Source: a virus
Taxonomy: Duplodnaviria; Heunggongvirae; Uroviricota; Caudoviricetes
DNA length: 14,139 nt
Virus record (IMG/VR): IMGVR_UViG_2703718861_000003
Strand: one strand, 5' to 3'
Below, piece by piece: positions 6,001 to 9,000 of the stretch. A program made the position numbers. Each line of letters starts with the position of its first letter. The first letter of the stretch is position 1.

Positions 6001-9000
6001 CTCCTTCCGCAGCATGAGAATTGTGTAGCCACGCGCAGGTTGTAGTCTGGCTTTTGCATCAATAGTAAGCGTTGCAATTTTTCGGATATGAAGATAACCA
6101 GCTCTTTCCAGTGCCAGGGTTTCCCTGAATATCGCTTGCTTAGAACAACAGCAGAAATCAGCAAGCACCTGATGATCAATAACTCTCTCGCCTTCACCGT
6201 CTGAAGAACCCGACATCAAAACACGCAACATAATCAGGCGCTGAATCGGGTTATCGAAAGCACATCCGCACACAAACTGAAAACAGTTCACGCCACACCT
6301 CCCAGACGCTTAAACATTTTTCCGGAGCAAAAGGCTATAAGCGGCATACTGACGCGGTAATTACGGCCCAGCGGTTCACAAATCACCTTCTGACATTCAC
6401 GGTCAACCAGGCTAACACGTAGAACATGCCCTGCAGGCGTGGTGTACCACTGACCAGGACGAGGACAACGGAAAGTCTGATTGGTAAACCGTTTGAAAAT
6501 ATTCCGGATCATTTGCGCCCCCTTACCTCTGAAGGGTTCAGCGACAAATTTATGAGACTGGCCAGTAGCGCCGCGTCGTTGATGCGGTCATACAGACTTA
6601 CAGCCAGCGGGGATTCGGCTTTTGCCAACATGGGATAAAGCTGCTGCAGCCAGACCTTGTGGATTACCGACAGGTGGGAGTAAAGCACGCTGGCGTTATC
6701 TGCGGCATCGCTCAGCGTGGATGGCTTTGAAAGCAGTTTTTCCATCTGGTTAAAGGCATTGATGTATGCCTCTTTGAACCGGGCAGCACGTTTACCCGTG
6801 AAACCCATAGCAAGAAACGCAAAACCGTCGCGGGTGATTTGGTAACAAGGGAGTTTGCGGCCTGATGCGTCGGTGTATTCACTTAACACAAAATTGTGTT
6901 CAGTAAATTCAGCGGAACATTCGAGGTTTCTAATTCTATCTAAAACCCGCTCATGCCGTTTAGTAAAGTAATTAGCTACTGCAAGAGATGTGGTGACAAC
7001 GCGACCATTGATAATCGTGATTTCAGGGTGAGATTGGGTTGGGAGAGTAGTCATGGTGACAGCCCCTATGTTGAATTCAATGAACTCACCACCAAGGCTT
7101 TCCACGACCATATAGGTGGTGAGACGTACAGGGGTGGAAATACCGGTCAACATAGAACCCGGCCCAACCGAAGTTGGCCCTGCACGCCCCACCATAATTT
7201 GGGCGTAACGATGCTCATGACACGAAAAAACCGCATGAGCGCGGTTGTGCTCTATATTGAATTTCGGGTTTCCACGCCCGGCACCCGCTTTATAAGGTGC
7301 CGGAACAGTGTAACGTCCCGGAATTGCAGAATCAATATGCTGGTGGTCCTTCACACTCAACAAAATCACGCCTGAATTTCCACAAAGGACTAAAGCACTC
7401 ATGCGGGTAGTCTTTGCGAAGATAGATAACGCGCTGTGTTTCTGGCTCCCAACGAATAACATGGACATAAAGCCCTCTTCCGTCACGAAACCAGCGGTTA
7501 AGTTCCTGCACAACTCGCCCCCCACAGTCAGGTAAAGTTCTCTGTGGTTACTTACAGCCAGGTGATTTGGTAATCTGCATTCATGCCGTAACAACAGGTG
7601 TTCAGCGACGCTGACCACCAGCTGTTGCGACAAACGGTTATTTGCCGTTAAACTATTCATGCGTTAGTTTCTCCACAACCAGAAGCAATCGACGCCACGA
7701 CGCCCGGAGCTGCACACTCGCGGGCGTTACTATTTTCTGGAGCGCAGAAGATTTTGTAGACCAGTGCTGCATGCTCCTGGAGCTTCGAAATTGAAAGATA
7801 CAGTTCGTCGTTAATTGCTGTCTTCTCATGCGGTTCCACTACACCGTCTTCGATTGCTGAACGAATCTGTCTGGAATAACTGCCGATCTGTTCAATGACT
7901 TCCAGCAGGCGCTGGTTTATATCGGCGTTCTCTACTGCCTCAATTTCAGGAAGCGATACGAACACCCCACCAGCAGACTGTGCGACAGCATCCGCAATGT
8001 AGTGAGTGCCAGCCGCACGCTGTAAAACCATTGCCCATCCCAGCGGGAAAATCTGATCGCCATCTGCACGAAGGCGGTTGAATAAAGCGTTCTCTGTTAC
8101 ATCCAGCCAGTCAGCAGCTTCAGCGTAACCCCCAGGCAATGCCGCGATAGTTTTTCTGACAGCTTTCACGTACCACTCAGGTTGTTTTTCCACTTTCCAG
8201 TGATGCTTACCCACGGCTTACCTCCTGTTCCTGTGGTTTAAACCCATTCTGGTTTTGGCTAGATTGAAAACGTGCCGGATAAAGAATCTGCATTTCGCTG
8301 ATTTCACCCTTAAAAAAATTGGCCAGACGTTCTGCAAGATCGATAGATGGAATTTGTTCCAGTCTTTCAATACGACTCAGCGTCGCTGGATTGACCTGAA
8401 CGCCCGCAGCAACATGCTGCAAAGTAAATCCGTGCGCCTTACGCACATTCCGTAATGGTGATTGCATATAACCTCCACATATTGCGTGATGAGCATATTA
8501 TTTCACGCAAATATTTTGCGCAAGTTGATTTGCTTAACGCGCAATAAAGAAATGTAATAAACGCATGAACATAGGAAATCGAGTCAGACAACTTCGCCAG
8601 GCGAAGAACATGAAAATCGCCGATCTCGCTGAAGCAATAGGAGTGGATGCGGCGAATATCTCGCGCCTCGAAACAGGTAAGCAGAAACAATTCACTGAAC
8701 AAGCCCTGAGTAATATTGCCAGGAGCTTAGGTGTTGATATTGCTGATCTCTTTACCTCAGACCTCAAAAGTAATACTGTATGTAAAAACAGTATTAGTGA
8801 GGATGTTGCGCAGGTGAAGGATGTATTCCGTATTGAAATGCTGGATGTCAGTGCCAGTGCGGGAAATGGCCTTATCCAGGGCGGTGATGTCATTGATGTG
8901 ATTCATGCCATTGAATACAGAACTGATAATGCTGTATCGATGTTTGGTGGACGACCAGCAAATCACATTAAAGTTATCAACGTTCGTGGGGACAGTATGT

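Follow-up and report, generated by a model that had tools for sequence, protein, structure and literature searches.

A long Rha reading frame in a phage genome probably runs through a DUF4222 gene and an IsrK/C4-type RNA cassette into a 181-codon rha gene

Introduction

In phages P1 and P4, C4 RNA is released from a longer transcript by RNase P processing and accumulates as a stable RNA, and P1 makes two in-frame Ant products. The c4 antisense RNA of the P1/P7 immI region was reportedly described by Citron and Schuster in 1990. In immI, the antisense RNA is cut from its target's own transcript, and its loops pair around the next ribosome-binding site, leading to the antirepressor (PMC8201110). 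P4 relies on such pairing to stop transcription ahead of its replication genes, and the active product of its 'cI protein' ORF is the CI RNA (summarised in PMC4825925). A promoter lying upstream of isrK in Gifsy-1 has been demonstrated to drive transcription (PMC4825925). At the protein level, one paper grouped the Rha domain with ANT, KilA-N, Bro-N and ORF6N (PMC10111431), and Ash has been regarded as a protein domain whose function is unknown (PMC8951638, PMC10111431).

Here we analysed a 14,139-nt stretch of DNA from a tailed phage (Caudoviricetes; IMG/VR record IMGVR_UViG_2703718861_000003), hereafter the window. A first-pass annotation had described one of its ORFs as a Rha domain joined in frame to an N-terminal extension of about 200 residues, and had considered a novel domain fusion, an internal start giving two products, or a lost stop codon or sequencing error. 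We judged this 383-codon ORF to be a chimeric read-through ORF rather than one protein; the extension of ~200 residues is probably not a protein domain, and the genuine rha start is most likely an internal ATG.

Results

The ORF extends from ATG to TGA on the minus strand (6509..7660, 383 codons), as had been reported, with zero in-frame stops between M1 and M203; PGAP names its product 'Rha family phage regulatory protein' (WP_001537099.1). The Rha domain, previously placed near residue 200, was found at residues 223-308 (Pfam PF09669, E 5.7e-31) and is full-length (PF09669, 107.4 bits, cut-off 29.9; TIGR02681, 100.6 bits, cut-off 45.95, residues 216-312). Codon 203 is indeed an ATG (7054..7052), preceded 8 nt upstream by AGGGG (7067..7063). 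From this codon, the Rha gene proper (6509..7054, minus strand) specifies 181 aa (MTTLPTQ...), with the Rha domain at residues 21-106 and then a helical C-terminal part.

Upstream of the ORF lies ymfL (CII/CP76-like; 7657..8214, minus strand), itself preceded by cro (8207..8467, minus strand), and a cI-like repressor gene (8565..9257, plus strand) faces this early rightward operon. The position of ymfL assigns the cassette described below to this operon, downstream of cro and facing the cI-like repressor gene. The final codon of ymfL and its stop (GCA TGA) together supply the M1 ATG. This overlap (ATGA), with GGAG 10 nt upstream, fits translational coupling; it counts against an accidental ORF, as does the frame being open over all 383 codons and preserved in E. 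coli and some Salmonella prophages. On DNA that is 98-99% identical, PGAP calls either one Rha ORF or DUF4222 plus a shorter ORF, and the homologues are 181, 227, 249, 280, 296, 316 and 383 aa long. Compensated frameshifts are present in some homologues, and the cassette is deleted in one.

We counted substitutions by codon position against four homologues. The Rha part carries 170, 140 and 308 at first, second and third positions (p 1e-17; half on third positions), whereas codons 117-202, which cover the cassette, carry 60, 73 and 56 (p 0.29). The coding-type pattern begins at ATG 7054, with substitutions spread evenly over codon positions before it, and within the long ORF is seen only in codons 203-383. 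AlphaFold, run on one shallow alignment of 25 sequences, gave pLDDT values of 20-30 (<50) for residues 1-210 and 69-90 for residues 211-310, so that no statement on the fold of residues 1-210 is possible. A Foldseek search of the PDB with the predicted model yielded nothing at E <= 0.001, its best, weak matches being mainly winged-helix regulators, and an NCBIfam search of residues 1-202 returned no family.

Under codons 1-202, the DNA would instead hold, all on the minus strand, a spacer, a DUF4222 gene, a promoter and an IsrK/C4 RNA cassette. The spacer from the ymfL stop to the DUF4222 start (7512..7656, minus strand; ~145 nt, codons 2-50 of the long ORF) is left unannotated by PGAP in other genomes. 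It has no third-position bias (7, 12 and 14 substitutions against a Salmonella phage; 23, 18 and 21 against e14), and its gaps relative to e14 are individually not multiples of three. The DUF4222 small protein gene that follows (7332..7511, minus strand; 59 aa, GTG start, GGGGGG 6 nt upstream) matches Pfam PF13973 (E 9.4e-14, 51.1 bits, cut-off 27) in a frame that differs from that of the long ORF, and overlaps codons about 50-110 of the latter. Substitutions are carried by the third positions of the DUF4222 frame (4, 3 and 14 against 118970_sal3; 20, 16 and 38 against e14), corresponding to the second positions in the long ORF; purifying selection over codons ~50-110 acts on the DUF4222 frame. 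PGAP calls DUF4222 as its own gene in near-identical DNA.

Two other readings of this region were considered and set aside. A YmfM-like protein in the N-terminal ~100 residues was suggested by BLASTP (33% identity), but it is the DNA sequence and the DUF4222 frame that are conserved, and the YmfM frame was therefore not regarded as the conserved one. In 118970_sal3, a 1-nt difference alters which frames join, and the 107-aa ORF there prompted the idea of a programmed frameshift from the M1 frame into DUF4222. No slippery site was found. By eye, the alignment shows that changes ahead of the 1-nt difference are silent in the DUF4222 frame already, so the 118970_sal3 insertion looks lineage-specific and the frameshift idea was dropped.

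An IsrK-type sRNA (7224..7300, minus strand) was detected by its match to Rfam RF01394 (61.6 bits, gathering 50; E 2.1e-11). It contains two target sites complementary to C4, a1 (GUGGAAA, 7275..7269) and b1 (UCAAUAUAGAGC, 7260..7249), and ends in a Rho-independent terminator identified by a terminator scan (hairpin 7246..7229, then TTTTTC). The peptide HAVFSCHEHRY, singled out in the first-pass annotation and present at residues 142-152, is the conceptual translation of this terminator hairpin and U-tract (7246..7224). A putative isrK promoter (7307..7335, minus strand) comprises a -35 hexamer (TTGATT, 7335..7330), a 17-nt spacer and a -10 hexamer (TACACT, 7312..7307) that ends 6 nt before the +1 at 7300; the DUF4222 stop TGA (7334..7332) falls within the -35 hexamer. 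With 8/12 consensus positions the promoter is weak, and nothing at isrK reached threshold in a consensus promoter scan. The call is based on positional alignment with nine other loci, TTGnnn-N17-TAnAnT being found at equal distance from the isrK +1 in 10/10 loci, including Gifsy-1 and P4.

Downstream of IsrK, on the same strand, a C4 antisense RNA (7112..7199, minus strand) gives a full-length match to Rfam RF01695 (82.4 bits, gathering 45; E 2.6e-15), with its 3´ tail, ...CACCACC, visible in the sequence. We compared ten loci: the window, mEp460, Lys8385Vzw, Stx2_131990, two P88-like phages, Klebsiella NAR688, 118970_sal3, P4 and Gifsy-1. Across them, the closing stem and two internal hairpins of C4 are paired in 270/270 cells (100%), with slid controls pairing in 34-44% of cells. 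Compensatory changes on both sides affect 11 of the 27 pairs, the observed score is reached by 0/500 shuffles, and this structure is also recovered as the minimum-free-energy fold (z = -4.7). The C4 b loop (UUCUAUGUUGA, 7157..7147) and a segment (UUUCCAC, 7140..7134) are complementary, over 11-12 bp and 7 bp respectively, to both IsrK and the downstream leader. In the leader, the targets and ribosome-binding site (7063..7105, minus strand) comprise a2 (GUGGAAA, 7105..7099) and b2 (UCAACAUAGGG, 7074..7064), the latter overlapping the Shine-Dalgarno AGGGG of ATG 7054.

This layout recurs beyond the window. The a/b-target complementarity occupies the same fixed positions, despite differing sequences, in most of the ten loci, and b2 precedes a Shine-Dalgarno sequence and an ATG that lies 54-58 nt after C4 across the loci compared. 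All nine other loci have the isrK-C4 pair in identical order, and in other phages the cassette lies in intergenic DNA or behind unrelated genes. E. coli EH53 carries a second isrK-C4-rha module directly after another rha gene, which places the beginning of the module at the promoter rather than at M1.

Several observations bear on ATG 7054 as the rha start. M203 is nearly invariant across differing downstream modules, the distance of the Shine-Dalgarno sequence and ATG from C4 is kept in ten phages, the codon is the counterpart of the annotated anrP start in Gifsy-1, and 181-aa homologues are called from the corresponding ATG. Of the earlier proposal of an internal start yielding two products, the start is supported, as the genuine beginning of rha and not of a second product. 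A further AUG lies at C4 position 5 (7192..7194, minus strand; codon M156), the site where Gifsy-1 orf45 begins. It is in frame with rha, and no stop interrupts the leader frame before 7054, where it runs on into rha. The phase of the long ORF is open across the cassette in 9/10 loci; this could reflect selection for translation or, the loci being related, a stop-free frame inherited along with the conserved RNA.

The first-pass annotation had seen no placeable motif in the first 200 residues. A profile search does place part of them: residues 117-213 match the Pfam Ash model (PF10554; 34.5 bits, cut-off 26) end to end. The match spans isrK, C4 and the b2/Shine-Dalgarno region, with conserved Ash 'residues' tracking RNA stems and variable ones tracking the RNA specificity loops. 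Among the Ash-positive ORFs tested, which include the historical P4 'cI protein' ORF, six out of six overlie isrK and/or C4. By the substitution counts and pLDDT values given above, the Ash stretch, unlike Rha, shows neither protein-like evolution nor a confident fold, and it is taken up by two RNA genes and a terminator. Pfam Ash itself is thus probably an annotation artefact, the conceptual translation of an RNA cassette, although Gifsy-1 orf45 is reported to be translated (PMC4825925) and part of the Ash frame may therefore be translated. A novel protein domain in residues 1-200 is rejected in view of the Ash, isrK/C4 and DUF4222 matches together with the even substitutions and low pLDDT. 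Nor does a novel domain fusion survive: a known Pfam family is matched, the extension neither evolves nor folds like a protein, and the Ash+Rha architecture is annotated in hundreds of clusters, so that the fusion is not novel in the sense in which it was proposed.

Discussion

We consider it probable that the 383-codon frame is an accidental ORF over a spacer, a DUF4222 gene, a promoter and a cassette of the P1 immI/P4/Gifsy-1 isrK type, with rha starting at ATG 7054; gene callers would have stretched rha upstream along this open frame. It is unlikely that the main product starts instead at AUG 7194, replacing or accompanying the 181-aa form with a 228-aa Rha that has a 47-residue leader, as would result from the leader frame running into rha. 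The AUG is found unchanged at C4 position 5-7 in 10/10 loci, Gifsy-1 orf45 begins there and is reported to be translated and required for anrP translation (PMC4825925), the window frame has no stop up to M203, and 227-aa homologues are listed in some databases. However, the AUG is not preceded by a Shine-Dalgarno sequence and lies within the 5´ strand of the long C4 stem, the 47 leader codons lack a coding-type pattern (36, 43 and 34 substitutions), and AlphaFold confidence stays low until about residue 210. Moreover, Gifsy-1 and Klebsiella NAR688 have a leader ORF that ends at the downstream ATG or short of it, and the in-frame arrangement is therefore not conserved.

We give very little credence to the current annotation, in which a 383-aa protein is made from ATG 7660 by coupling to ymfL, Ash is a real domain and the RNA matches are coincidental or dual-use. 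The ORF is continuous, shares an ATGA with ymfL and is retained in many genomes, Pfam Ash scores above its cut-off, and both PGAP and phage annotators call the protein. Yet codons 50-110 overlap DUF4222, whose frame bears the selection signal, and codons 117-202 lack third-position bias in a stretch that holds an intrinsic terminator and two strongly covarying RNAs. The intergenic location of the cassette, or its location behind unrelated genes, in other phages, the pLDDT of 20-30 in the extension, and the compensated frameshifts and cassette deletion among homologues likewise speak against it. A recent accident in one sequence, whether a lost stop, a frameshift or a sequencing error, seems more improbable still. 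The 1-nt difference in 118970_sal3 does change how frames join, and in Gifsy-1 a stop separates the leader ORF from anrP, but mEp460, Lys8385Vzw (381 codons) and many complete E. coli genomes share the 383-codon frame, at 97-100% identity. Its presence across many genomes and independent assemblies indicates that it is inherited and not an error in the window; what remains of the lost-stop proposal is that, relative to Gifsy-1, the leader ORF has no stop before the Rha ATG.

As part of the accidental-ORF explanation as a whole, and by analogy with described systems, the module is likely to be a P1 immI/P4/Gifsy-1 isrK-type RNA cassette controlling the 181-aa Rha. As in P1, P4 and Gifsy-1, C4 would be cut from transcripts and pair with a2/b2, blocking ribosome binding at the rha start and perhaps favouring termination, and IsrK, which carries the same target sequences, would be a competing or activating partner. 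With C4 blocking and IsrK competing, the 181-aa Rha, a putative antirepressor-class regulator, would be made only when C4 is outrun, for instance upon early-operon induction. A minor 228-aa form might also arise, because the leader AUG at 7194 is in frame here. Starting at M203 puts the Rha domain at the N-terminus, as is usual for the family, and would place expression under the C4/IsrK cassette. More tentatively, and with slightly less than even confidence, we propose that Ash and many 'ash' or long 'Rha' entries are the translated isrK-C4 cassette, and that in lambdoid prophages of the mEp460/SfV/ST64B type this cassette forms a second, RNA-based immunity gate in the early operon, before rha and the replication genes. 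As a further possibility, ribosomes on early-operon transcripts may travel along the frame left open from the ymfL stop through the IsrK terminator, and so suppress that terminator.

For the window, the gene model is corrected from a 383-aa fusion to a 181-aa Rha regulator, with the gain of a previously unannotated DUF4222 gene and two regulatory RNAs. The NCBI pipeline annotates near-identical DNA in two incompatible ways, and homologue starts fall at at least seven positions. The Ash family seems to rest on translated RNA, in which case many proteins in databases carry incorrect N-termini and a non-domain has entered the domain-network analyses of phage antirepressors. The early operon of a common prophage family of E. 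coli, Shigella and Salmonella, some Shiga-toxin phages among them, would harbour an RNA switch like those of P1, P4 and Gifsy-1, with a bearing on the gating of induction and replication. The core mechanism is already known in other phages, and the present result is a correction and extension rather than a new principle.

Of the systems compared, e14 ymfL-ymfM of E. coli K-12 shares the end of ymfL, the first ~45 nt and a DUF4222 ORF lying out of frame under the annotated frame. Unlike the window, it is without isrK, C4 and rha, and its annotated frame, named cell division inhibitor YmfM, stops after 112 codons. For P1/P7 immI (c4, icd, ant1/ant2), the likeness is drawn from the literature, with the Rfam C4 family found here too; in P1, however, icd comes first after c4 and Ant belongs to another protein family. 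The icd-like ORFs that also follow the cassette in P4 and Klebsiella NAR688 are absent here, and whereas the short leader ORF of an immI-type module, in an arrangement for translational coupling, ends at or before the start of the regulated gene, the window frame continues into rha. The IsrK-type sRNA is the counterpart of the P1 a1/b1 region and of the P4 seqA region. P4 immunity (seqA, CI RNA, seqC) has isrK and C4 matches in like order, with a/b complementarity upstream and downstream, and, like the window ORF, its old 'cI protein' ORF has an Ash match, which overlies the CI RNA, but its inter-RNA spacer is 107 nt, compared with 24 nt here. Gifsy-1 isrK-orf45(STnc1160)-anrP (Hershko-Shalev et al., 2016; PMC4825925) has a like order of promoter, IsrK with terminator, C4-type RNA, targets, and the Shine-Dalgarno sequence and ATG of an antirepressor-class gene, and likewise has a leader AUG at C4 position 5 and a/b complementarities at matching positions. 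The downstream protein has an ORF6N domain in Gifsy-1 and a Rha domain here, and Gifsy-1 orf45 terminates at an ATGA that it shares with anrP, whereas the leader frame of the window enters rha. Finally, the Gifsy-1 cassette follows a late antiterminator gene, while the one described here belongs to the early operon and comes after the cII-like ymfL and the DUF4222 gene.

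The long Rha ORF and its annotation

On the minus strand of the window, an ATG-to-TGA ORF of 383 codons (7660..6509) carries a full Rha domain at residues 223-308 (Pfam, E 5.7e-31), with a further match at residues 216-312 (NCBIfam TIGR02681). In the Rha family the domain is usually N-terminal. Codon 203 is an ATG (M203, 7054..7052) with AGGGG (7067..7063) 8 nt upstream. The first-pass annotation described all of this correctly, but reported no placeable motif in the first 200 residues and offered a novel domain fusion as one explanation. Pfam Ash (PF10554) does match residues 117-213 (34.5 bits, cut-off 26), and the homologue lists of the ORF are full of proteins with precomputed Ash and Rha matches. 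The combination is thus already annotated, which the first-pass annotation itself had named as speaking against its claim, and the fusion is not new.

Related DNA is annotated inconsistently. An E. coli chromosome with 100% identity lists the ORF as one 'Rha family phage regulatory protein' of 383 aa, and gp41 of phage mEp460 is its annotated counterpart. DNA that is 98-99% identical receives two NCBI-pipeline annotations, either a single long Rha ORF or a 'DUF4222 domain-containing protein' followed by a shorter 'Rha family' or 'ash family' ORF, and the listed lengths for homologues of the Rha part are 181, 227, 249, 280, 296, 316 and 383 aa. We also noted that E. coli CP55_Sichuan, identical to the window over 6200-8300, has an IS421 interrupting the replication gene downstream of rha (L001 3964-6296), a gene that is intact in the window (5012-5995).

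The extension overlies two RNAs

An Rfam scan of the whole window at gathering thresholds gave only two matches, both within the extension and on the strand of the ORF: isrK (7300..7224, 61.6 bits) and the C4 antisense RNA (7199..7112, 82.4 bits). The intrinsic terminator of IsrK (hairpin 7246..7229, then a U-tract, minus strand) reads as HNRAHAVFSCHEHRY in the long-ORF frame, so the His/Cys motif remarked on in the first-pass annotation is a translated hairpin. 'IMVGRAG', conserved in Ash proteins, is the translation of the 5´ strand of the C4 stem. The isrK-C4 pair was present, in unchanged order, in the nine further loci fetched (mEp460, Lys8385Vzw, Stx2_131990, Salmonella phage 118970_sal3, two P88-like P2-family phages, Klebsiella phage NAR688, satellite P4 and Gifsy-1). 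Across the ten sequences, 270 of 270 pair cells of the Rfam C4 structure are standard and both sides have changed in 11 of the 27 pairs; no shuffle out of 500 matched the observed covariation, and pairing fell to 34-44% when partners were slid as a control. Folding of RNA 7300-7040 (z = -4.7) recovered the C4 structure, with the Shine-Dalgarno sequence and ATG predicted to lie within a hairpin. Both isrK and C4 are under RNA-type selection and, by the sequence criteria tested, apart from the weak promoter match described below, the cassette belongs to the C4 and isrK RNA families.

Each of the two single-stranded segments of C4 is complementary to one site in IsrK and one further downstream. 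Segment a (UUUCCAC, 7140..7134) corresponds to a1 in IsrK (7275..7269) and a2 downstream (7105..7099), and segment b (UUCUAUGUUGA, 7157..7147) to b1 in IsrK (7260..7249) and b2 downstream (7074..7064). The positions of the sites are kept in most of the ten loci, with sequences that vary from phage to phage. Site b2 abuts or overlaps the Shine-Dalgarno sequence, and in every one of the ten an ATG lies 54-58 nt past the C4 3´ end; this ATG is 7054 in the window and the annotated anrP start in Gifsy-1. Both C4 segments are common to the window and 118970_sal3 (window b, 7147-7157), mEp460 has the same a and a different b, and Lys8385Vzw and Stx2_131990 differ in both. Such variation among otherwise close prophages suggests distinct RNA 'immunity types' inside one phage family, as judged from these segments.

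A promoter-like TTGnnn-N17-TAnAnT ends 6-7 nt ahead of the isrK +1 in 10 of 10 loci; the putative promoter in the window (TTGATT 7335..7330 and TACACT 7312..7307, minus strand) is a weak match, below the scanner threshold. In E. coli EH53 (L013 514-2264, NZ_CP146512.1) the promoter-isrK-C4-rha module occurs twice in tandem, and both copies carry the annotation of a long 'Rha family' ORF. The second copy follows immediately on the stop of the preceding rha, which makes the promoter, and not M1, the beginning of the module.

Protein-type evolution begins at M203

Substitutions between the window and four homologues were counted by long-ORF codon position. Across the cassette (7300..7055) the counts at positions 1/2/3 are 60/73/56 (p for uniformity 0.29), and from the C4 AUG at 7194 they are 36/43/34 (p = 0.55); in the Rha part (7054..6512) they are 170/140/308 (p = 1e-17), so that the switch in pattern coincides with M203. 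The frame is open through the cassette in nine of the ten loci, which are related. In alignments of homologues, compensated frameshifts fall within the 3´ strand of C4, and the cassette is missing altogether from one natural variant. A structure-based search, which the first-pass annotation had named as a means of placing the extension, did not place it: AlphaFold2, with one shallow 25-sequence alignment, gave pLDDT 20-30 at residues 1-210 and 69-90 at 211-310, and a PDB fold search with the model gave no significant match. M203 is nearly invariant even beside unrelated downstream proteins (Rha, a 76-aa protein, an Icd-like protein). Protein-type selection does not act on the extension; the observation of a long ORF is real, the novel-fusion reading is wrong, and the internal start, also proposed in the first-pass annotation, is the best-supported gene model, with the coding pattern beginning there.

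This variant, protein P0219, retains the Rha part and the remainder of the long frame, with the whole isrK-C4 stretch deleted, and could serve to control naturally for cassette function.

The first 116 codons

Because the first 116 codons are too alike among E. coli relatives (98.6-99.1% identity), more distant comparisons were used. A DUF4222 ORF of 59 codons (7511..7332, minus strand, another frame than the long ORF; Pfam E 9.4e-14) opens with GTG, 6 nt past GGGGGG. By position in this frame, substitutions number [4,3,14] against 118970_sal3 and [20,16,38] against prophage e14. Its third positions are the long-ORF second positions, and their excess of substitutions identifies the DUF4222 frame as the selected one. 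The DUF4222 stop codon sits within the isrK -35 hexamer. The 145-nt spacer from the ymfL stop to the DUF4222 gene has no frame preference, and its gaps against e14, taken individually, are not multiples of three. The M1 ATG is made of the final ymfL codon and stop (GCA TGA), which is enough to account for the conservation of this ATG. Right behind the ymfL stop, ~45 nt (7612-7656, minus strand) are conserved even in e14, and might form a small hairpin or open a short leader ORF; the next 100 nt are divergent, with indels relative to e14.

In e14 itself, a 59-aa ORF lies unannotated and out of frame within ymfM (L003 2502-2681; NC_000913.3 1204001-1204180), with a TTG start, AAGGAGA 7 nt upstream and a Pfam DUF4222 match (E 8.6e-19). 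Conservation between e14 and the window tracks this frame, not the annotated ymfM, a cell-division inhibitor gene. In the ymfM paper the whole ORF was cloned and a term search of the text found no frame-specific mutants; going by those parts of the paper, filamentation could come from the product of either frame.

Pfam Ash as a probable translated RNA cassette

All six Ash-positive ORFs tested (6/6) overlie isrK and/or C4. In the historical P4 'cI protein' ORF, the Ash match falls exactly over the C4/CI RNA (8420-8507). The P4 immunity factor has been reported to be the CI RNA (PMC4825925), and Ash has been treated as a protein domain of unknown function (PMC8951638; PMC10111431). The Pfam Ash 'domain' is probably the isrK-C4 cassette read as protein, a reading that seems to be absent from the literature on Ash we consulted. 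This amends a gene annotation in wide use, and probably a Pfam family too.

RefSeq still lists the 137-aa P4 ORF (L010 8168-8584) as 'cI gene product / transcriptional repressor'; an Icd-like ORF, in frame and opening with MATTLTPSHPEF, makes up its 3´ part. The PGAP 'ash family protein' of E. coli RM13752 (L014 1592-2137) comprises isrK (1661-1737), C4 (1762-1849) and an ORF of ~76 aa opening with MATVPALSRLNDEDL; its protein-database form, P0104, is a 278-aa ORF on >1000 contigs.

Proposed mechanism and comparison with known systems

With the cII-like ymfL on one side and the replication genes on the other, the cassette is part of the early operon, and a P4-like gating of replication is possible by analogy. 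The P1 immI operon with its c4 antisense RNA, a basis for the mechanism proposed here, was reportedly described by Citron and Schuster in 1990. By extension from P1, P4 and Gifsy-1, C4 would be cut from transcripts of the region and pair with a2 and b2 (PMC8201110, PMC4825925), which would keep rha untranslated and may favor termination. IsrK, with identical target sequences, may either compete with this pairing or remodel it. Rha would be produced once early-operon transcription outruns C4, as a 181-aa regulator with its domain N-terminal; a minor 228-aa form from the AUG at 7194 is possible.

Such a mechanism is already known elsewhere, and we infer that the cassette works like the P1 immI, P4 immunity and Gifsy-1 isrK modules. 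Its site arrangement is like that of P1 c4 (a1b1/a2b2, taken from the literature) and of P4 (seqA/seqC). In Gifsy-1, the short leader ORF orf45 begins at an AUG at position 5 of C4, and its stop overlaps the anrP start (ATGA). In the window, by contrast, the same C4 AUG (7194) shares its frame with rha and no stop separates the two. The window cassette differs from these systems in the regulated protein, Rha, in its early-operon location and in having its leader in frame.
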